A program made the translations under genes and the position numbers. Source: an uncultured Coriobacteriaceae bacterium (GTDB taxonomy: Bacteria > Actinomycetota > Coriobacteriia > Coriobacteriales > Atopobiaceae). From it: a DNA stretch of 64,000 nt. The notes beneath the pieces were generated by a model that did not search any database, was not told the origin of the DNA, and worked only from the letters and a program-made list of their open reading frames with translations. Positions within the stretch are counted from its first letter, which is position 1. The number at the start of each line of letters is the position of its first letter. The stretch is taken from positions 16,662 to 80,661 of the forward strand of contig UQSV01000001.1 of the NCBI GenBank assembly GCA_900543875.1. The letters run 5' to 3'. Positions 10,508-45,669 of this stretch are shown in pieces.

Positions 10508-11353
10508 TCATCGATTAGCCAGTGGATGATTTCGAGCCTCGCCGTTCTTTCTTGGTAGCTTTACTCTACTCTTCTTAACCTTCTTGTATACAAAGATCTC
10601 TCTATGTCCCAAATCATTTGGAAGTTCGAATGTTTCACGTGAAACATTCTCAAAACCGCACATCTGTGCAACCTTAGATGCATCAGCAAGCTCTTCGTGC
10701 TCAGGATTCGCCTTTCCAAAGAAGAGATAGCCACCCTTCTTAACGTAAGGCTCAGCATATTCAATCAAAATGTCGAGCTTTGCTAGAGCACGCGCAGTCA
10801 CACCATCATAGATGCGACCAGAAGTCTTAACGAATTCTTCGAGACGCCCATGATAAGCAGAAACCCTGTCAGACATACCAAGCTCGTCAACAAACTCTTT
10901 GCATGCGTTGACCTTCTTGCCAACAGAGTCAAGTAAGTCAATGTCAAACTCACTGACGCAAGCAAGAGGAATACCAGGAAAGCCACCACCGGTACCCATA
11001 TCAAGGAAACGAGCTCGTTGGTTAAGACCGATGGCCTCAGAGATAACCTTTGCAAACAGAAGTGAATCAAAAGCATGGAGGATAAGACCATCAGGCATCG
11101 TTCGAATGCTCGTAAGGTTAACGACCTCGTTCTTCTTATACATGAGATAGAGATCTGCAATAACCATCTCAATCTGAGAATTGGTCAAATTGAGTGAATA
11201 GCTGTCAGACATCTCCTGAAGCGTTCTAAGGGCATCTTTAACAGTATAGGTGGAATTAGTCACGAAAGTTGTTTTCGTGTCACAGAGAGCCTCTGAGAGA
11301 CTCGAATTTAGTTCTTTGAACTCTCTTTGACTTAAAGTCATGAAGCTACCCAA
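10508..11353 (-). CDS. rsmG: 16S rRNA m7G527 methyltransferase RsmG (GidB)
   Basis: SAM-binding motif LDMGTGGGFPGIPLA. About 40% GC. Confidence 0.85.
   Translation of the reverse strand: MGSFMTLSQREFKELNSSLSEALCDTKTTFVTNSTYTVKDALRTLQEMSDSYSLNLTNSQIEMVIADLYLMYKKNEVVNLTSIRTMPDGLILHAFDSLLFAKVISEAIGLNQRARFLDMGTGGGFPGIPLACVSEFDIDLLDSVGKKVNACKEFVDELGMSDRVSAYHGRLEEFVKTSGRIYDGVTARALAKLDILIEYAEPYVKKGGYLFFGKANPEHEELADASKVAQMCGFENVSRETFELPNDLGHREIFVYKKVKKSRVKLPRKNGEARNHPLANR
10631..10646. promoter_or_regulatory. parS: Second perfect parS site (TGTTTCACGTGAAACA) inside the rsmG coding sequence
   Basis: Exact palindrome. Confidence 0.85.
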
Positions 11354-14144: not shown

Positions 14145-14195
14145 AGCAAATCCTCCTGAGTGACACAGATCACTGCGTAAGCAGTCAAGCCCCAA

Positions 14196-14656
14196 GATTG
14201 TAGGGGTCTGAGATAACCGAGGTCAAGTTGATTATTGACTTTTTCACGAGGTCAACTTGCATGAGCGGCCCGTGAAAACATCCCTCAGAGGCCTTCGACC
14301 ACAAGCGAGGGGCGCCAAGATGTCAACAACCACAACAGGTTGCGCCGGCCGCTGGTGAAAAGATGCCACAACTTGCCCAACTTTCCAACATCTTTCATCA
14401 AGAGAAGAAAACATGGCGATAACTTTTCACCGCTGATGGAAAATCTCAGCTCAGAAGTGAAATTTTCTGTTCTTCTCGGCTATCTTTTCATTCGCTTGCA
14501 CACGATATTCCAGCAGGTTATCAACACGCTTTCATCGTTTGTTAATAACTTTTCGCCTGTGGAAGAAACATTGCGCAAGTTTTCACCATTTGACGGAAAC
14601 TTGTTAAAAACAGTGAAATGTAGTGAAAAGCAAGCGCGCGGACGAAAGAAGCACCC
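14196..14656. promoter_or_regulatory. oriC: oriC-associated DnaA-box cluster A (between rpmH and the inserted gene)
   Basis: At least six TTTTCAC-containing boxes, including TGTTTTCACG, TTTTCACCG, TTTTCACCA and TTATCAACA. AT-rich. Confidence 0.55.
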
Positions 14657-15865
14657 ATGGCAGACGCCTTCTACCCCTTCGTTGGAGAGGGACCAACCGG
14701 CATCAACGGAGAGACGAAGCCCCAGGTAGTGGGCGAGCAGGGCGCCGCCACCGAGCCCAGGCTCGGTTCCGTGGTGACAAACCCCGCGCGCATCGCCGTC
14801 TTTGACGACACCTCGGCGGCCCCGCGCGTCGTGGTGGTGCAGCCCAACGATGTGCGCACCTACCTCGAGGAGATCACCACGACCGTCACCAGGCTCGCCA
14901 AGGAGCAGGGCGGCTCCATCTCGTTTACCGTGATCCGCGAGGTTGTCGAAAACTTCGTGCACGCCTACTTCATCGAGCCAACCATCTCGATCCTCAACGG
15001 CGGAAACACCATCCGCTTCTCGGACCAGGGGCCCGGCATCCAGGAGAAGGACCGCGCGCTCGAATACGGCACGACGTCTGCCACCGAGGAGATGAAGCAG
15101 TACATCCGAGGCGTGGGGTCGGGGCTGCCCTACGCGCAGCAGTACATGGAGGACCACGGCGGCACGCTGACAATCGAGGACAACCTCAACGCAGGCACCA
15201 TCGTGACCATCTCGATGCCATCTCCCCAGGCAACAGCGCAGCCCATGCCAATGCAGCCGCAGATGGCCCAGGCCATGCAGCAGACGCAGGAGCAGGGGAC
15301 CATGGTGACTCCCGAGCAGATGCAGCAGGGAATGGACCAGGCCGCGCAGGTGCAAGCAATGCAGCAGATGGGACAGATGCAGCCCCAGCAGCCGTGGGCC
15401 GCGCAGCAGACTGACTACGCCCCGCAGCCCATGCAGCAGCCAAATGTTCAAAACCCCTATGTCTATGGCATGCCCCCGCAGACGGCCCAGCGGGGCACCT
15501 GGCCACGGCAGCCCTACCAGCAAATGCCAAACCAGAGCTACTACCAGCAGGGATATCCCATGCAGCAAGCATGGCCCCAGCAGGACTGGCAGCAGCCGAT
15601 GACGCAGCCCATGGGCGGCATGCAACCCCAGCCCTGGGCGCCGCAGCCCCAGCAGCAGGTGCCGCTCGAGCTCAGCGAGCGCGACTCGCAGGTACTCGTC
15701 TTCCTGGCGCAGCACGAGTCGGTGGGTCCAACGGACCTCGTCAACGCCTTTGGCGGCTCGCTCTCGACCTGGACGCGCAGCCTGCAATCACTGGAGGAGC
15801 GCGGCCTGCTGACGAAGATGGGCCAAAAGCGCTACCTCACCGACGCGGGAAGGGCCTTCCTCTAG
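14657..15865 (+). CDS. Origin-embedded protein: stand-alone histidine-kinase-like GHKL ATPase domain, Q/M/P-rich low-complexity linker, C-terminal MarR-type winged HTH
   Basis: N-box REVVENFVHA, G1 box DQGPGI, G2 box GVGSGLP. Residues roughly 190-340 are Gln/Met/Pro/Tyr-rich. The C-terminus SERDSQVLVFLAQHESVGPTDLVNAFGGSLSTWTRSLQSLEERGLL is MarR-like. Confidence 0.6.
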   Translation: MADAFYPFVGEGPTGINGETKPQVVGEQGAATEPRLGSVVTNPARIAVFDDTSAAPRVVVVQPNDVRTYLEEITTTVTRLAKEQGGSISFTVIREVVENFVHAYFIEPTISILNGGNTIRFSDQGPGIQEKDRALEYGTTSATEEMKQYIRGVGSGLPYAQQYMEDHGGTLTIEDNLNAGTIVTISMPSPQATAQPMPMQPQMAQAMQQTQEQGTMVTPEQMQQGMDQAAQVQAMQQMGQMQPQQPWAAQQTDYAPQPMQQPNVQNPYVYGMPPQTAQRGTWPRQPYQQMPNQSYYQQGYPMQQAWPQQDWQQPMTQPMGGMQPQPWAPQPQQQVPLELSERDSQVLVFLAQHESVGPTDLVNAFGGSLSTWTRSLQSLEERGLLTKMGQKRYLTDAGRAFL

Positions 15866-16002
15866 CGGGTTTTCGACACGCGCTTGCCCCGCTCGCCAAG
15901 TTTTCAACAATCACGATGGATGAAAACCCACGCTCCCATATAATGAGTTTTCATCAAACACGTGGTTAAAGCACCAAACGGCTACGACAGGATGTCAGCA
16001 AC
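15866..16002. promoter_or_regulatory. oriC: DnaA-box cluster B / dnaA promoter region
   Basis: Four GTTTTC(N)ACA-type boxes: GGGTTTTCGACACG, AGTTTTCAACA, GGGTTTTCATC (reverse complement), AGTTTTCATCAAACACG. Confidence 0.6.
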
Positions 16003-17616
16003 ATGGCAGAGAACGCAAACATGGAGTCGGACGCCCAAATCTTGTGGGAAGATGTCGTGAACATGCTCGAGGCAGACGGCCTGGCTCCGTCGACCCTCGC
16101 CATGTTCAAAAGCTGTCAGGCCGTCGACATCGACGGCAACACGCTCGTCATCTCCGCAGGCAGCGGCTTTGTTCGCCGCAACGTCGAGAAGAACGCCGCA
16201 ACGATCAAGGCAGCCCTCGAGCGCGCGGCGTTCCAACCCATGGAGCTGAGCGTTGGCATCAACCGCTCGGGAGCTGCGGCCCAGCCGGCCATCCCCGTGA
16301 CGTCCACGGCTCCTGCGCCGCAGGCACAGGAGCAGACGGCGCAGGCTGCCGCCCCGGTGACGTCTCCGCAGCCTGCCACCACGCCGGCACCCATCCCGAC
16401 GCCGGCGCCCGCCTCGCGTATCCAAACCTCCATCACGCGCGAGGAGTTCGAGCGCATGATGAGCCCGGAGGCAGCCGCTCAGGAGGAGCCCTCCGAGGAA
16501 GACGTGGCCGCGAGGCGCAAGAAGAACCCCCTCATCCAGGACATCGCGCCCTCTGACTCCCAGCTCACCTTTGACACCTTCGTCGAGGGCGAGGAGAACC
16601 AGCTGGCCTTCCAGGCCGCCAAGGCCGTGGCGAACGGTAGCCACGGCTACAACCCACTGTTCATCTATGGTGGCCCGGGCATGGGCAAGACCCACCTGCT
16701 CAAGGCCATCCAGAACTACCTTGCCGTGAACGACCCCGACCGCATCTGCGTCTACCGCGCGGCCCGCGAGTTCGTGAGCGACTACACCGACGCCATGGTT
16801 GACACTTCGAGGGACGTCAAGCGCGCGCTCGAGCAGAACTACCATGACATCGATGTGCTCATCATCGACGACATCCAGGGCTTCAAGGGCGCCGCGAAGT
16901 CCATCAACTTCTTCTTCGACACCTTCAACTACCTCACGAGCCACGGCAAGCAGATCGTGCTCGCGGCAGACGAGAGCCCGGCCGAGCTGGGCCTCGAGGA
17001 ACGCGTGACAACCCGTCTCGACTCGGGCGTGACCCTCTCGATCCAGGTGCCCAACTACGAGCTCAAGCTTGGTCTCATCAAGGCATTCTACGAGCGCATG
17101 AAGGCGGATGCCATCGAGAACGGCCAGCACGACTACGATGGCACGCTCTCCGACGACGCGCTCGAGTTCATGGCCCAGAGGGCCGGCGCTTCGATCCGCA
17201 CCATCAAGTCGTTCTGCCAGCTGTGCCTGCTCGAGGCCACCAGCAAGCAGGCGCGTGGCGAGGAGTTTGGCCGCGAGGATATCTCCCAGATCGCCGTCAA
17301 GAAGTGGGGCGCCGACACGCGCACCTTCACGATCGAGCAGATTCAGAAGTTCATCGAGCAGCGCTACTCCATCTCGCACGCCGACCTCATCAGCAACAAG
17401 CGCAACAAGGGGCTCATGGAGCCCAGGCACGTCGCCGTGTGGCTCGCCCGCGAGCTCACGGACTCCACCCTCGCCCAGATTGGCGAGCGCTTTGGCGGCC
17501 GCACCCACGCAACCGTGAAGCACAGCATCAAGTGGGTTGAGGACCGCAGGAGCGAGGACCGCGTCGTCCACGACAAGATTGCCCGGATGAAGGAGGACCT
17601 GATGGCCGGCGCATAG
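16003..17616 (+). CDS. dnaA: Chromosomal replication initiator DnaA
   Basis: AAA+ Walker A GGPGMGKTHLL. C-terminal DNA-binding domain. Pro/Ala-rich linker. Confidence 0.95.
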   Translation: MAENANMESDAQILWEDVVNMLEADGLAPSTLAMFKSCQAVDIDGNTLVISAGSGFVRRNVEKNAATIKAALERAAFQPMELSVGINRSGAAAQPAIPVTSTAPAPQAQEQTAQAAAPVTSPQPATTPAPIPTPAPASRIQTSITREEFERMMSPEAAAQEEPSEEDVAARRKKNPLIQDIAPSDSQLTFDTFVEGEENQLAFQAAKAVANGSHGYNPLFIYGGPGMGKTHLLKAIQNYLAVNDPDRICVYRAAREFVSDYTDAMVDTSRDVKRALEQNYHDIDVLIIDDIQGFKGAAKSINFFFDTFNYLTSHGKQIVLAADESPAELGLEERVTTRLDSGVTLSIQVPNYELKLGLIKAFYERMKADAIENGQHDYDGTLSDDALEFMAQRAGASIRTIKSFCQLCLLEATSKQARGEEFGREDISQIAVKKWGADTRTFTIEQIQKFIEQRYSISHADLISNKRNKGLMEPRHVAVWLARELTDSTLAQIGERFGGRTHATVKHSIKWVEDRRSEDRVVHDKIARMKEDLMAGA

Positions 17617-17862
17617 CCTTCAACATGCCCTGTTTACAAGCGCGAAGAAATGCGTTGAAAACCCCGTCACAGATGTTCAAAGAGTTTTCCACACGTCTTC
17701 AACGTTCAAAACGAGACGGGTTTCTCGACAGTAAAACAGGTCATGAAAAAAGCCTCTGAGCTGGCACTTTGCAGAGTTATTCACATTTGAACACGCTTTA
17801 CTACTTCAACTAGCTTTATATCTACTTATATATACATAGATAGATAGGACAAGGAGAGACAC
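17617..17862. promoter_or_regulatory. oriC: oriC core between dnaA and dnaN: DnaA boxes plus an AT-rich DNA unwinding element (DUE)
   Basis: TTTTCCACA at 17685-17693. TTATTCACA at 17777-17785. GGGGTTTTCAAC on the reverse complement. DUE TAGCTTTATATCTACTTATATATACATAGATAGATAGG. Confidence 0.65.
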
Positions 17863-18966
17863 ATGCGCTTCACCGTCAGCCAGTCTTCGCTCGCCAAGGC
17901 TCTCTCCGTGGTCTCGAAGGGAATCGCCTCCCACTCCACCATCCCCGTTCTCGGCGGAGTGCTCATGCGCGCCACCGGCGGCACCCTTGAGATGCAGACC
18001 TCGGACCTCGACACCTCCATCAGGCACAAGATCGCTGCCAACGTCGAGGAGGAAGGCGAGACCGTCATCTCGGGGCGCATGCTCTCCAACGTCGTCAAGA
18101 ACCTTCAGGACAGTGCCGTGACCTTCGATGGGGGAGAGGGCACGATCAACATCACGTGCGACAAGAGCTCCTTCCACCTCAACACCCTCAACGCGGCCGA
18201 GTTCCCCAACTTCCCCGAGGTCGCCATGGAGCGCTCGGTCGAGCTGCCCGTGGGCGTGCTGTCCGAGATGGTCGACAAGGTCTACAAGGTGACCTCGCGC
18301 GACACGAGCCGCCCGGTGCTCTCGGGCATCCTGCTCAACGTCGAGGAGAACTGCGTGCGTCTCGTGGCCACCGACTCCTACCGCCTGGTGGTCTGTGACA
18401 CCAACGTCGAGACCTCCTCGCTCGACGGCACCTTCGAGATGATCATCCCGGGCACCGCCTTCCACGACGTGCTCTCCCTGCCGAGCGACAGCCCCACCGT
18501 CATCGTGGGCGCCACGACCAACCAGGTCATCTTCGTGTCGGGCAACACCACCTATGTGTCGCGCCGCATCGAGGGTACCTTCCCCAACTACAAACAGCTG
18601 CTGCCGTCGAGCCGTCTCACCTCGATGAAGGTCAAGGTCTCCGACCTCTCGGGCGCCCTCAAGCGCGTGAGCTCCATCGCCACGTCGAACTCCTCGGTGC
18701 GCTTTGACGTTGACCCCGACGCCGCGCTCGTGACCCTCTCGTCCACCTCGCCCGACCAGGGCGACGCCCGCGAGCAGGTCAACGTCGAGGTCGAGGGCGA
18801 GGCCAACTCCATCTGCATGAACTACCGATACGTGGGCGACTGCGTGAGCGCCCTTGCCCAGGACAGCGAGGTGACGCTCGAGCTGCAGCAGAGCATGCGC
18901 CCCGGCGTCTTCAAGAGCTACGGCAAGATCAACTACCTCTACCTGCTCATGCCCGTGCGGATGTAG
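17863..18966 (+). CDS. dnaN: DNA polymerase III beta sliding clamp
   Basis: Typical N-terminus MRFTVSQSSLAKAL. RBS AAGGAGAG. Confidence 0.95.
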   Translation: MRFTVSQSSLAKALSVVSKGIASHSTIPVLGGVLMRATGGTLEMQTSDLDTSIRHKIAANVEEEGETVISGRMLSNVVKNLQDSAVTFDGGEGTINITCDKSSFHLNTLNAAEFPNFPEVAMERSVELPVGVLSEMVDKVYKVTSRDTSRPVLSGILLNVEENCVRLVATDSYRLVVCDTNVETSSLDGTFEMIIPGTAFHDVLSLPSDSPTVIVGATTNQVIFVSGNTTYVSRRIEGTFPNYKQLLPSSRLTSMKVKVSDLSGALKRVSSIATSNSSVRFDVDPDAALVTLSSTSPDQGDAREQVNVEVEGEANSICMNYRYVGDCVSALAQDSEVTLELQQSMRPGVFKSYGKINYLYLLMPVRM

Positions 18967-18969
18967 CCC

Positions 18970-20061
18970 GTGTCGCTCACCGTCTCGTCCATATCGTTCA
19001 GGAACTACCGCAACCTTGCCGCGCTGGAGCTGCGCCCCAGCGCCGGCGTCACCGTGCTCGTGGGGCCCAATGCCGTGGGCAAGACGAACACGGTCGAGGC
19101 ACTGCAGTACGTCACGAGCGGCCAGTCGTTCAGGCGCCCCTCGCCCTCCGAGCTCATCGCCCCCGACGCCGTCGAGGCGTCGGTGGCAGCTCGTCTCGAG
19201 GGCGATGGCCGCGTCATCGATGTTGAGATGCGGGTGACGCCCCAGTCGCGTAAGTTCCTGCGCAACGGCAAGCCCTGCCGTGGCGCCGACCTCGCGGGCA
19301 CGCTGCTTTCGGTGCTCTTCTGCCCCGATGACCTGTCGCTCGTGAAGGGGTCGGCCTCGCGCCGCCGCGGCGAGCTCGACGCCTATGGCGCGCAGGCCAA
19401 CGTGGGCTACCGCAAGGTGCTCTCGAACTACACGCGCTCGGTCGAGCAGCGAAACCGCCTGCTCAAGGATGGCTGTGACCCCGTCCTGCTCGACGCCTGG
19501 GACGAATCGGTGGCGCTGGGTGGTGCCACGCTGCTCCACCACCGCCTCAACCTCTTTCGCCGTCTGTCGGGCATCGTGAGCGAGGTTTATGCCGAGGTGG
19601 CCTCGGGCGAGTCGCTCGCCTGCACTTACGTGCCAAGCGTCGAGGGCGCCGAGGCGGGCATGGGCCGAGACGACCTGCGCGACCTCATGCTTTCCCAGAT
19701 GCGCGACCGCCGTGCCGACGACGTGCGCCGCGCGCAGACGCTCATCGGGCCCCACCGCGACGACGTGGTCTTTGCGATCGACGGCCGCGACGCGCGCTCC
19801 TTTGGCAGCCAGGGCCAGCAGCGCTCGGTGGCCCTGGCCTGGAAGATGGCCGAGGTGCGCCTGTGTGAGGACCTGCTGGGAGAGCGGCCGCTGCTGCTGC
19901 TCGACGACGTCATGAGCGAGCTCGATGCCTCGCGCCGCTCGTGTGTAACGCGCTTCGTCGAGGGCGGCATCCAGACGATCATCACCACGACGAACCTCTC
20001 GTACTTTGACGACGAGCTGCTCTCGAGCGTAAAGGTGGTGCCCTATGGGGCAGAGTCGTAA
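18970..20061 (+). CDS. recF: DNA replication/repair protein RecF
   Basis: Walker A GPNAVGKTN. GTG start. Confidence 0.9.
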   Translation: MSLTVSSISFRNYRNLAALELRPSAGVTVLVGPNAVGKTNTVEALQYVTSGQSFRRPSPSELIAPDAVEASVAARLEGDGRVIDVEMRVTPQSRKFLRNGKPCRGADLAGTLLSVLFCPDDLSLVKGSASRRRGELDAYGAQANVGYRKVLSNYTRSVEQRNRLLKDGCDPVLLDAWDESVALGGATLLHHRLNLFRRLSGIVSEVYAEVASGESLACTYVPSVEGAEAGMGRDDLRDLMLSQMRDRRADDVRRAQTLIGPHRDDVVFAIDGRDARSFGSQGQQRSVALAWKMAEVRLCEDLLGERPLLLLDDVMSELDASRRSCVTRFVEGGIQTIITTTNLSYFDDELLSSVKVVPYGAES

Positions 20062-43072: not shown

Positions 43073-43085
43073 GTAAGGAGTGTCC

Positions 43086-43616
43086 ATGAAAGTCATCCTT
43101 CTGGGTGAGCTGAAGGGCAAGGGCGGAGAGGGCGACGTCGTCGAGGTCGCCCAGGGGTTCGCTGAGAACTACCTGTTCCCCAACCGCATGGCCCTGCCTG
43201 CCACCAAGGGCAACATCAAGCAGCTCGAGGAGCGTCGTCACAACATCGAGAAGCGCGAGGTCAAGCGCATCGCCGATGCCGAGGCTCTGAAGGAAGTCAT
43301 CGATGGCAAGACCGTCCTCATCGACGCCAAGGTCGGCGAGGAGGGCCAGCTCTTCGGCTCCGTGACCAACACCATGGTCGCCGACGCCATCAAGAACGAG
43401 CTGGGCGTCGAGGTCGAGCGCAAGCGCATCGAGCTCAACCGCGCCATCAAGACCTCCGGTCTGCACACCGTCAAGGTGAGCCTGTACCGTGAGATCGCCG
43501 CCGAGCTTCACCTCCAGGTCGGCAAGCCGGCCGTCGAGGAGGTCGTCGAGGAGGCTCCCGAGGCCGAGGCCGTCGAGGCTGAGGCTGCCGAGGAGACCAC
43601 CGAGGCCGCCGAGTAG
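43086..43616 (+). CDS. rplI: 50S ribosomal protein L9
   Basis: MKVILLGELKGKGGEGDVVEV. RBS TAAGGAG. Confidence 0.9.
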   Translation: MKVILLGELKGKGGEGDVVEVAQGFAENYLFPNRMALPATKGNIKQLEERRHNIEKREVKRIADAEALKEVIDGKTVLIDAKVGEEGQLFGSVTNTMVADAIKNELGVEVERKRIELNRAIKTSGLHTVKVSLYREIAAELHLQVGKPAVEEVVEEAPEAEAVEAEAAEETTEAAE

Positions 43617-43693: not shown

Positions 43694-44211
43694 TCCGAAG
43701 TTATTAACGAACTGGTGCTGAGCTGGGGCTATTCAATAGTGGGCTGCTTGCGTGTCATACCTACCCCCATTGGCTGGCTGCCTCGGGCATAACGAATTGT
43801 TTGGATTGAACAAGCAATGTACCTGCTGTTTTAGTAGGTTCTGCCAAATTGTTTGATGATTTTGGAAACGTGCGACCCGTGCGCTCATCATGCTCGAACA
43901 ACTGTGCGAGATGTTGATAACCGCTCGCGGATGAATTCCAAGAATGTTGAAAAGTGTGAAAACTCGCATAGCGCGTGGTAGATGGCTCGGACTTTCATCA
44001 ACCCGCAGGTAAGCGGGATGCGGGCCTTCGTCATGCGTCTTACGGTTTTGTGCTAGGCCTTCCTGGCCAGGACGTGGCTCGCTTGGCCTATGGGCCCATC
44101 ATCGCGTCCGTCGAGTGCCGTGACTGCCCACGTTGCGCTTGTCATCGGGTCATTCGGCGCCGCCGCCCTTCTCGCGCAAATCATTCTTGCTTGCCAACAT
44201 GCCTCAGTTGA

Positions 44212-45669
44212 ATGAGTTACGATTCAAAGTTGCACCTTGCTGTCGACGAGAAGACCTTGGGAGGACACTTGGACGAGATCGTGTACGATGCTACGCCGTC
44301 TCCGGCGGCCCTCGCATCCATCAAGACGATGCCCTCCGACGTCCCCGCCGAGCGCTCGGTTCTCTCGGCGATGCTGCTGTCGCCCGAGGTGCTCGAGAGC
44401 GCCATCGTCGAGCTGACCGACGAGGACTTCTTCCTCGAGTCCAACCGCATCATCTTCGCGGCCATGCGCACGATGTTTGAGCGCAGCAACCCCGTCGACC
44501 CCATCTCGCTTGCAGACTACCTCACGAGCACCGGCGACCTCGAGCGCGCCGGCGGCATCCAGCAGCTCGCCCGCCTGGGCGAGGACTCGTTTGCCATCGC
44601 GAGCTGGCGCCACCATGCGGAGATGCTCCACCGCGACACGACGCTGCGCCTCATGATCGACGCCTCGGCCAAGATCGCCAACCTTGCCGCCAACGCGCCC
44701 GAGGACACCAAGGAGGTCGTCGACACCGCGGAGAAGATGCTGCTTGACGTCACGAACCGTGACATCAAGACCACCTACGTCAAGCTCGAGGACGCCATGA
44801 TCAAGCTCTACCAGGAGCTTGCGGAGCAGGCGCAGAGTCCCGACGGCACGGTGGGCATCCAGACGGGCTTCCCCACGATGGACCGCATGTTCCTGGGCCT
44901 GCGCCCCGGCCAGATGATCGTCGTCGGCGCCCGACCGGGCGTGGGCAAGACTTCGTTCGCCCTGAACCTGGCCGTCCAGATGGCCCAGGCCGGCACGACC
45001 GTCTGCTTCTTCTCGCTCGAGATGAGCTCCGAGGAGGTCGCGCAGCGTCTGCTGTCGACCTACTCCCAGGTGCCGCTGCAGAAGATCCGCTCGGCAGACA
45101 TCAAACCCGAGGAGTGGCAGAGCCTGCTCACGGCCACCCAGGACCTCGCGGCCCTCGACCTCATGATCGACGACACGCCGGGCACCACCGTCACCGAGGT
45201 GCGCGCCAAGGCCCGCCGCATGCTGCGCAACAAGGAGAAGGGCATCGTCATCCTCGACTACCTGCAGCTGGTCTCGCCCCCGCCAAACCGTCGCTCCGAC
45301 TCGCGTGCCACCGAGGTGTCCGAGATGAGCCGTGGCATCAAGATCATGGCCAAGGACCTGGGCATTCCCGTCATTGCCCTGTCGCAGCTGTCGCGTAAGA
45401 ACGAGGAGCGCACCGGCTCGCGCGGCAAGCGCCCGCAGCTGTCCGACCTTCGTGAGTCCGGCGCTATCGAGCAGGACGCAGACATCGTCATCCTGCTTGA
45501 CCGCTCCATGACCGAGGAGGAGGGCGCCCGCGAGGACCGCCCGGACTACGGCGTCACCGAGTTCGTTGTCGCCAAGAACCGTTCCGGCCCCCTGGGCATT
45601 ATCCCCATGGCGTTCTTCGCCGAGAAGACCAAGTTCATGGAGGTCGACGCGCACCACGACGACGCGTAG
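44212..45669 (+). CDS. dnaB: Replicative DNA helicase DnaB
   Basis: Walker A GARPGVGKTSFAL. N-terminal ERSVLSAMLL motif. The start is ambiguous (44212, 44281 or 44329). Confidence 0.9.
   Translation: MSYDSKLHLAVDEKTLGGHLDEIVYDATPSPAALASIKTMPSDVPAERSVLSAMLLSPEVLESAIVELTDEDFFLESNRIIFAAMRTMFERSNPVDPISLADYLTSTGDLERAGGIQQLARLGEDSFAIASWRHHAEMLHRDTTLRLMIDASAKIANLAANAPEDTKEVVDTAEKMLLDVTNRDIKTTYVKLEDAMIKLYQELAEQAQSPDGTVGIQTGFPTMDRMFLGLRPGQMIVVGARPGVGKTSFALNLAVQMAQAGTTVCFFSLEMSSEEVAQRLLSTYSQVPLQKIRSADIKPEEWQSLLTATQDLAALDLMIDDTPGTTVTEVRAKARRMLRNKEKGIVILDYLQLVSPPPNRRSDSRATEVSEMSRGIKIMAKDLGIPVIALSQLSRKNEERTGSRGKRPQLSDLRESGAIEQDADIVILLDRSMTEEEGAREDRPDYGVTEFVVAKNRSGPLGIIPMAFFAEKTKFMEVDAHHDDA

Follow-up and report, generated by a model that had tools for sequence, protein, structure and literature searches.

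A GHKL ATP-binding, winged-helix protein encoded directly upstream of dnaA in Coriobacteriia, a candidate regulator of dnaA expression or replication initiation

A 64-kb stretch of contig UQSV01000001.1 from an uncultured Coriobacteriaceae bacterium of the Atopobiaceae (hereafter the window, to which all coordinates refer) carries an additional gene between rpmH and dnaA, which we call X. The gene is an open reading frame (ORF) of 402 amino acids (aa) at 14657-15865 on the plus strand. Upstream lies its divergent neighbor rpmH (ribosomal protein L34; 14010-14147, minus strand), identified by ORF translation and tblastn, and downstream follow, all on the plus strand, dnaA (537 aa, 16003-17616), dnaN, encoding the beta clamp (17863-18966, assigned from the ORF and the loci of relatives), and recF (18970-20061). 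From ORF, Pfam matches, homologues, alignment and an AlphaFold2 prediction, X encodes a protein with a GHKL ATP-binding domain, a disordered segment and a C-terminal winged helix-turn-helix (wHTH). The ORF announced in the earlier note is real: its frame is continuous, a 99%-identical protein (P0001) represents 125 member sequences, and the layout is common to the homologues, which together rule out a frameshift artifact. X thus combines known domains in an undescribed architecture that is locked to dnaA across the three Coriobacteriia lineages sampled.

At the loci of species-representative genomes (n = 43), yidC, rnpA and rpmH on the minus strand are followed by X, dnaA, dnaN and recF on the plus strand, and dnaA is the next gene on the same strand as X in 42 of 42 assessable cases. 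At three of these loci tblastn matched the C-terminus of X only; L042, when read out, holds the full-length gene. A match to rpmH, 84-98% identical, is present in all 42 genome loci that contain that side (L026 ends there). A metagenome scan yielded 80 further loci which, with three assembly loci, make 83 with GC contents from 36% to 62%; dnaA again comes next, on the same strand, in 69 of the 69 that have sequence downstream of X, the other 14 ending within 500 bp. Overall, a co-oriented dnaA directly follows X in 111/111 assessable loci. Arabiibacter has the same gene order as the window. In Adlercreutzia equolifaciens, dnaN on the minus strand precedes X and dnaA on the plus strand, with rpmH, also on the plus strand, on the far side. 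Nine loci have this order (L045, L061, L062, L074, L090, L122, L056, L067, L092), and in them the long, box-rich and AT-rich spacer falls between dnaN and X. Such an order implies that X and dnaA were inverted as a unit, and the invariant partner of X is dnaA, not rpmH. The spacer between X and dnaA measures ∼88 bp on average outside the Atopobiaceae. The idea that X had been inserted at the origin has to be abandoned, as we see no local insertion: the gene holds the same position in all relatives, and its presence with fixed synteny in all three sampled lineages rules out a mobile or local insertion.

A word-indexed search returned 2681 relatives of X. The best 120 of them all combine HATPase_c and a wHTH within 260-497 aa, and the only names among these 120 are "ATP-binding protein", from Parolsenella and Atopobiaceae. 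An exhaustive profile search covering 1.84 billion representatives (clusters at 50% identity) recovered 357 clusters at E<1e-30 and 519 at E<1e-10, the 150th-best match having E=7e-63. Named members belong to Parolsenella, Olsenella, Atopobiaceae, Adlercreutzia, Gordonibacter, Rubneribacter, Arabiibacter, Eggerthellaceae and Eggerthella sp. CAG:1427; to the last of these, where the protein is annotated "putative uncharacterized protein", we traced a low-GC branch. Every organism name recovered, with the best 150 matches of the profile search inspected, is from the Coriobacteriia (Atopobiaceae, Eggerthellaceae, CAG-1427), and the family thus appears confined to this class among all samples that carry names. 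Eight loci (L003, L008, L013, L019, L027, L034, L038, L041) come from metagenome-assembled genomes whose labels (Acutalibacteraceae, Prevotella, Anaerovoracaceae, Bacteroidaceae, Paludibacteraceae, Alloprevotella, Oscillospiraceae) conflict with their Atopobiaceae-type origin genes. As the genes flanking X there are 80-98% identical to Atopobiaceae genes (against the window locus, 89-98% for rpmH and 56-87% for dnaN, values usual within the family), the conflicting labels are likely binning or labeling errors. No curated Pfam or NCBIfam family covers the architecture beyond the generic HATPase_c, which agrees with the suspicion in the earlier note that it was undescribed. In the library searched we found no literature on the X family or on Coriobacteriia origins, and a candidate review (PMC4255298) makes no mention of the gene. 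The search results therefore neither assign X to a known family nor show it missing from the origin of relatives, and its Gln-rich region is not frameshifted.

The GHKL (Bergerat-fold) domain spans residues 40-190 (14774-15226, plus strand). HATPase_c (PF02518) is the sole significant Pfam match of X (residues 91-190, E=1.8e-10, 41.7 bits against a cut-off of 26.4), and all the motifs quoted in the earlier note for a histidine-kinase-like core were recovered, namely EVVENFVHA (N-box, 95-103), DQGPGI (G1, 123-128) and GVGSGL (G2, 152-157). The predicted order of elements is an extra N-terminal beta-hairpin (44-61, ARIAVFDD...PRV), a helix (66-83), the N-box helix with E95, E98 and N99, G1 (D123-Q-G-P-G127), a conserved lid (SATEEMKxYIRG) and G2 (G152-V-G-S-G156). 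Across subfamilies with a mean column identity of 33%, the N-box E-x-x-E-N-x-x-H-A-x-F, G1 T-I-x-F-x-D-x-G-P-G-I, the lid G..SA...M...I-R-G and G2 R-G-x-G-S-G-L-P are invariant, which argues for selection on nucleotide binding. The hairpin upstream of the N-box (A-R-I-A-x-Y-D ... P-R-V) is highly conserved too, with invariant Asp and Pro. The stretch E95-V-V-E-N99-F-V-H102 matches motif I of GHL ATPases, and its Glu and Asn are invariant throughout the family; a Glu four residues ahead of the Mg-binding Asn is typical of GHKL members that hydrolyze ATP or act as serine kinases. In sequence searches of the PDB the best match was the catalytic domain of KinB (E=1.7e-4), and the region from N-box to G1 also gave weak matches to the N-terminus of MutL (E=0.4 and 1.5e-3). 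The domain stands alone, as had been claimed: no Pfam match to a HisKA/DHp or sensor domain was obtained (none of HisKA type at E<=1), and in the structure prediction a single 18-residue helix devoid of His (66-83) precedes the N-box helix, with no helical hairpin. Nor did NCBIfam offer a model for X; its only matches were to many sensor kinases at their C-terminal ends, with scores that miss the cut-offs by hundreds of bits.

The AlphaFold2 model, a single-chain prediction run on an alignment of 24 sequences, contains two confident domains, residues 40-190 with the Bergerat alpha/beta layout and residues 336-402 (15662-15862, plus strand) folded as a three-helix wHTH, which bears out the C-terminal winged helix. 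The rest is predicted to be disordered, residues 1-38 and 192-335 having predicted local distance difference test (pLDDT) scores below 50. A homologue with a short linker (P0400, 266 aa) was predicted with a mean pLDDT of 81 and a predicted template-modeling score of 0.59. The wHTH is of a generic type, with likenesses to MarR, Lrp/AsnC and Csa3. The last 65 residues gave sub-threshold Pfam matches to HVO_A0261_N (6.6e-6), IclR, MarR (1.4e-3) and TrmB. The MarR model itself (PF01047) scores X at 18.9 bits, below its cut-off of 24.6; MarR chains align with the ∼67-residue domain of X over 64-83 of their ∼140 residues, sharing the winged-helix fold, whereas the flanking dimerization helices of the MarR protomer are not found in X. 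The recognition helix varies by subfamily (TWTR versus SSTH). PADLOC returned only weak matches to Csa3/CasR at the level of the wHTH, and hence no link to a defense system.

The disordered parts consist of an N-terminal segment (residues 1-38; 14657-14770, plus strand) and a linker between the two folded domains (residues 192-335; 15230-15661, plus strand), the latter also evident from its composition. In the window, the 144-residue linker is 33% Gln, 16% Pro and 12% Met, an extreme case within the family. The earlier note had called it prion-like, and the window protein is indeed Gln-rich and predicted to be disordered there, but this character is not conserved: sequence and length of the linker vary (14 to 295 residues among sampled members), a relative from the rumen (L033) has a short linker that is not Gln-rich, some members are just 252-270 aa long, and in the CAG-1427 branch the P/Q/Y-rich segment is N-terminal and the linker short. 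"Prion-like" is thus no property of the X family. A census of 359 non-identical full-length members, a biased sample, found a long disordered segment in 347, located in the linker only (168), at the N-terminus only (170) or at both places (9), and in neither in 12. That such a segment, rich in Pro and Gln, is kept while its position is free suggests a module with a role of its own rather than a mere spacer. At the very N-terminus of X stands a short motif, MADAFYPFVGEGP, in which 24 Atopobiaceae sequences agree without exception at F5, Y6, P7 and V9. This conserved aromatic motif reads FYPFVGEG in Atopobiaceae, Y.Y.VNGG in CAG-1427 and FDY.FV in Eggerthellaceae, where it abuts the first strand, and it looks like a partner-binding peptide. 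As a side observation, one protein (P0002, 350 aa) is near-identical to X over the aligned residues and lacks 52 Gln/Met-rich linker residues, probably a linker-length polymorphism between close strains caused by slippage among CAG/ATG-rich repeats.

X is flanked by two groups of putative DnaA boxes. The sequence TTTTCAC occurs exactly eight times in the 64 kb, six of them in the upstream cluster (14241-14629; IG1), where TTTTCAACA with at most one mismatch is also found at 14353 (minus), 14382 (plus), 14518 (plus), 14580 (plus) and 14602 (minus). Relatives retain the proximal array (14515-14612): in the alignment of close relatives, 4-5 boxes in both orientations are conserved in the promoter-proximal half of the rpmH-X spacer. 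The spacer between X and dnaA has four boxes (15869-15956, plus strand; boxes at 15870 plus, 15901 plus, 15919-15927 reverse and 15948 plus). While the six upstream boxes of the earlier note stand, its count of four at 15866-16002 holds loosely, with two exact copies of GTTTTCNACA (15869 and 15900) and two one-off variants, GTTTTCATCA (15947) and the reverse-strand GTTTTCATC (15919-15927). Over the window, TTTTCAACA with at most one mismatch has 17 matches against 4.1 expected from shuffling, and 12 of these lie in 14353-17693, spread over the rpmH-X, X-dnaA and dnaA-dnaN spacers. Box densities across 36 loci are 8.8, 13.6 and 9.2 per kb in these three spacers, respectively, versus 0.33 per kb in coding sequence, and the k-mers most enriched in the two spacers flanking X (39-42 Atopobiaceae loci) merge into the 12-nt consensus AAGTTTTCAACA. 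Upstream of dnaA, boxes bracket a conserved TATAAT (-10 element, 15939-15944), and a block composed of AGTTTTCAACA, ∼30 nt and CCCATATAATGAGTTTTCA(A/T)CA is conserved in 12 aligned loci; this is what a dnaA promoter under autoregulation classically looks like. Eggerthellaceae have a short X-dnaA spacer, with few or no boxes in the examples read. Scans for terminators and promoters revealed neither a terminator separating X from dnaA nor, for X, a strong sigma-70 consensus. K-mer searches for a second motif, other than the DnaA box, that could be an operator of X turned up nothing but box variants and promoter elements of rpmH and dnaA.

The type of box changes together with DnaA. Domain IV of the window DnaA reads GGRTHATVKHS (residues ∼490-500, window 17470-17500) in place of the canonical GGRDHTTV.HA; all Atopobiaceae loci have GGR(T/S)HAT(V/I).HS, whereas Eggerthellaceae and CAG-1427-type loci have the canonical RDH(T/S)T. 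We distinguished the canonical TTWTNCACA (C6) from TTWTCAACA (A6). In Atopobiaceae, C6 boxes are nearly gone from the origin spacers, with 0.26 per kb in rpmH-X, 0 in X-dnaA and 0.7 in dnaA-dnaN, versus 2.9, 8.4 and 1.8 A6 boxes; the other Coriobacteriia have 3.5, 3.5 and 2.8 C6 boxes and 1.8, 0.18 and 2.5 A6 boxes per kb in the same spacers. Since A6 boxes also occur in lineages with a canonical DnaA, we dropped the notion that they are specific to Atopobiaceae in favor of the weaker claim that C6 was lost there. On the simplest reading these are DnaA boxes, and the Atopobiaceae DnaA would have shifted its preference at box position 6. As box sequence co-varies with DnaA domain IV, the boxes are no evidence for where the wHTH of X binds.

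The boxes continue beyond dnaA. Those of the dnaA-dnaN spacer (17653-17849) lie at 17653-17661 (minus), 17685-17693 (plus, TTTTCCACA) and 17777-17785 (plus, TTATTCACA), and after them the region reaches its highest AT content (17790-17849, GC 0.28). The lowest-GC 40-mer falls in this spacer in 34/36 loci, so that the DNA-unwinding element is probably downstream of dnaA, with 17790-17849 as the candidate. In Bacillus and in other Actinobacteria the unwinding element lies downstream of dnaA. The view that X is encoded inside the origin is accordingly right only in part: boxes do flank the gene in Atopobiaceae, but it sits between two upstream box clusters and not in the candidate unwinding region. 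GC skew shows no sign change within the window.

Several known systems share parts of X. Two-component histidine kinases have in common with it a HATPase_c domain with N, G1 and G2 boxes, but X lacks a DHp/HisKA domain, a phospho-acceptor His, a sensor or membrane segment and a nearby response regulator. Its neighbors at the loci examined are rpmH and/or dnaA, with no response regulator adjacent, and we rejected an ordinary histidine-kinase fragment given the missing DHp and response-regulator partner. SpoIIAB and RsbW are also stand-alone GHKL proteins, to which X adds the beta-hairpin, the disordered segment and the wHTH. The GHL ATPases MutL, GyrB and MORC share the Bergerat fold and a catalytic-type Glu before the Mg-binding Asn, and the conserved N-terminal extension of X could act as a strap; unlike MutL, GyrB, Hsp90 and MORC, X has no transducer (ribosomal S5 domain 2-like) domain, as nothing but the GHKL domain and the wHTH is predicted to be folded, and it would bind DNA through the wHTH. 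Among solved structures, X comes closest to DIP2311 of Corynebacterium diphtheriae (PDB 3lmm), in which a GHKL-like domain is likewise followed by a wHTH, both matched in three dimensions. Yet identity is only 13-15%, ∼300 residues of its 492-residue chain have no counterpart in X, and X differs by its long disordered segment and its fixed place beside dnaA. DIP2311 comes from structural genomics and is functionally uncharacterized; we take it to be a COG2865-type putative regulator of the composition "Schlafen/AlbA_2 + HATPase_c_4 + wHTH", and neither AlbA_2 nor HATPase_c_4 matched X in Pfam at E<=1.

Lineage-restricted proteins that act on DnaA or on origin DNA, the role that we propose for X, include YabA, SirA and Soj in B. 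subtilis, HobA and HP1021 in H. pylori, MtrA in M. tuberculosis and AdpA in Streptomyces. We know of no DnaA or oriC regulator with a GHKL ATP-binding domain, and of none that is invariably the gene preceding dnaA. Our preferred, if tentative, interpretation is that X is an ATP-switched, DNA-binding regulator of dnaA expression and/or initiation. X lies downstream of a control region rich in DnaA boxes, and after it, in Atopobiaceae, dnaA has a separate promoter bracketed by another pair of boxes. X would be produced together with DnaA under DnaA-box control. Through the wHTH, the protein would attach to DNA within or close to the dnaA/oriC region, and ATP binding or hydrolysis by the GHKL domain would serve as a switch, most simply by ATP-driven dimerization as in other GHKL ATPases. 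Switching would change how the protein binds DNA or how it contacts a partner, for which DnaA is the obvious choice, and so tune dnaA expression and/or initiation, while the disordered segment and the short N-terminal motif may supply multivalent or partner contacts. A bolder version, about which we are rather doubtful, makes X a new class of replication-initiation regulator in which a GHKL switch on origin or dnaA-promoter DNA contacts DnaA (e.g., via the N-terminal motif) and assembles multivalently through P/Q-rich segments, replacing the YabA-, Soj-, SirA- and Hda-type controls in Coriobacteriia. Several points count against the regulatory interpretation. What the linkage indicates is that X is inherited or expressed together with dnaA, which falls short of a direct role at the origin; nothing in the spacer DNA points specifically to X, the boxes being best explained as DnaA boxes; lack of a GHL-type transducer domain with its catalytic lysine means that robust ATP hydrolysis is not assured; and the restriction to Coriobacteriia relies on the few matches that carry names, so the family may be present elsewhere.

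Among other explanations, an unlikely one makes X an ordinary transcription factor or nucleoid-associated protein that senses ATP or a ligand and has its targets elsewhere, its adjacency to dnaA reflecting only an old operon or an advantage of gene dosage near the origin. The generic nature of the wHTH would fit, as would the IMG annotation "predicted transcriptional regulator" for one member and the spacers without an X-specific motif, but the adjacency persists in all 111 loci over GC contents of 36% to 62% and DnaA identities down to ∼30%, and it survived the inversion that parted X-dnaA from both flanks; neutral linkage is rarely so long-lived. We regard as improbable that X is a protein kinase tethered to DNA, in which a GHKL domain like that of SpoIIAB/RsbW or of mitochondrial PDK/BCK would phosphorylate a partner, for instance DnaA, on Ser/Thr (or His) and the wHTH would only localize the protein to the origin region. 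In favor, E-x-x-x-N (E95/N99) is arranged as in SpoIIAB-type kinases, conservation of the ATP lid is unusually strong, a GHL transducer domain is lacking, and the NCBIfam anti-sigma F factor model (TIGR01925) gives a weak match (E=0.014). However, that match scores 15.3 bits, far under the cut-off of 135, no partner-switching gene (STAS/anti-anti-sigma antagonist or sigma factor) adjoins X in the window or in the assembly loci checked, there is no evident substrate, and the matches from N-box to G1 also reach MutL, an ATPase.

It is likewise quite unlikely that the A6 boxes of the TTTTCAACA type are operators of the X wHTH instead of, or besides, being DnaA boxes, with X competing or cooperating with DnaA at the origin and the dnaA promoter, an idea that overlaps our regulatory model. 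Where DnaA is canonical, the stretches before X and behind dnaA are enriched in both C6 and A6 boxes, and the A6 consensus extends to the 12 nt given above; yet Atopobiaceae spacers, including the one with the AT-rich element, are nearly devoid of C6 and full of A6, it is in the same lineages that the DnaA domain IV motif has changed from D to S/T and from T to A, and the recognition helix of X differs between subfamilies that share A6 boxes. DnaA boxes are needed at any origin, and the simplest choice for them in Atopobiaceae is A6. We give very little credence to X being a degenerate histidine-kinase remnant, a pseudo-enzyme fused to an HTH and without nucleotide-dependent activity: its best sequence matches are C-terminal parts of sensor kinases and it has no DHp domain, but all nucleotide-contacting motifs are invariant family-wide, arguing for selection on ATP binding, and the family is old and diverse.

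The remaining features of the region concern its other genes. On the minus strand, rsmG, jag, yidC, yidD, rnpA and rpmH follow the usual origin-region gene order; the listed rpmH ORF extends to a TTG at 14195. A promoter-like site for rpmH (TTGACC-18-TACAAT, 14197-14226, minus strand; 10/12 matches in the promoter scan) lies in a block conserved in the alignment, and its k-mers AGATTGTA and AATTGACA are conserved in 28/39 and 24/39 loci, respectively. Between this promoter and the start codon, an inverted repeat (ACTGC-GTAA-GCAGT, 14172-14185, minus strand) present in most of 12 aligned loci could form a leader hairpin. Rfam recognized no known RNA in the spacers, the rpmH leader included. A sub-threshold Rfam match to AsdA, an antisense RNA of dnaA mRNA, inside dnaA (16666-16744, minus strand; 24.4 bits versus a gathering score of 52, E=0.074) probably reflects conservation of the dnaA sequence and not an RNA gene. 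A second box cluster (43900-43965), with TTATCAACA at 43912, TTTTCAACA at 43945 and TTTTCAC at 43956, all on the minus strand, occupies the ∼600-bp spacer between rplI (43080-43616) and dnaB, encoding the replicative helicase (44212-45669). This clustering of the box motif upstream of dnaB fits a DnaA regulon and suggests that dnaB may be under DnaA-box control. Between 8000 and 12000, in a region that holds rsmG (10508-11353), GC drops to 0.55 and then 0.46, versus ∼0.64 elsewhere.

To our knowledge, replication control is essentially unstudied in the Coriobacteriia, a class that includes Eggerthella lenta, known for drug metabolism in the gut, Collinsella, Olsenella and the vaginal Fannyhessea/Atopobium. 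The anatomy and conservation of X are solid and would surprise a replication specialist, while its function is entirely inferential. Its tie to dnaA in 111/111 loci of three lineages, together with an intact ATP site, makes X a strong candidate for a lineage-specific regulator of initiation or dnaA expression. In practice, the gene also cautions origin finders and annotators against taking the adjacency of rpmH and dnaA for granted, and the apparent shift from C6 to A6 boxes along with the changes in DnaA domain IV in Atopobiaceae represents a natural experiment on DnaA-box recognition. For this group of bacteria, X offers a taxonomic marker, possibly a narrow-spectrum target, and a hypothesis that can be tested directly.

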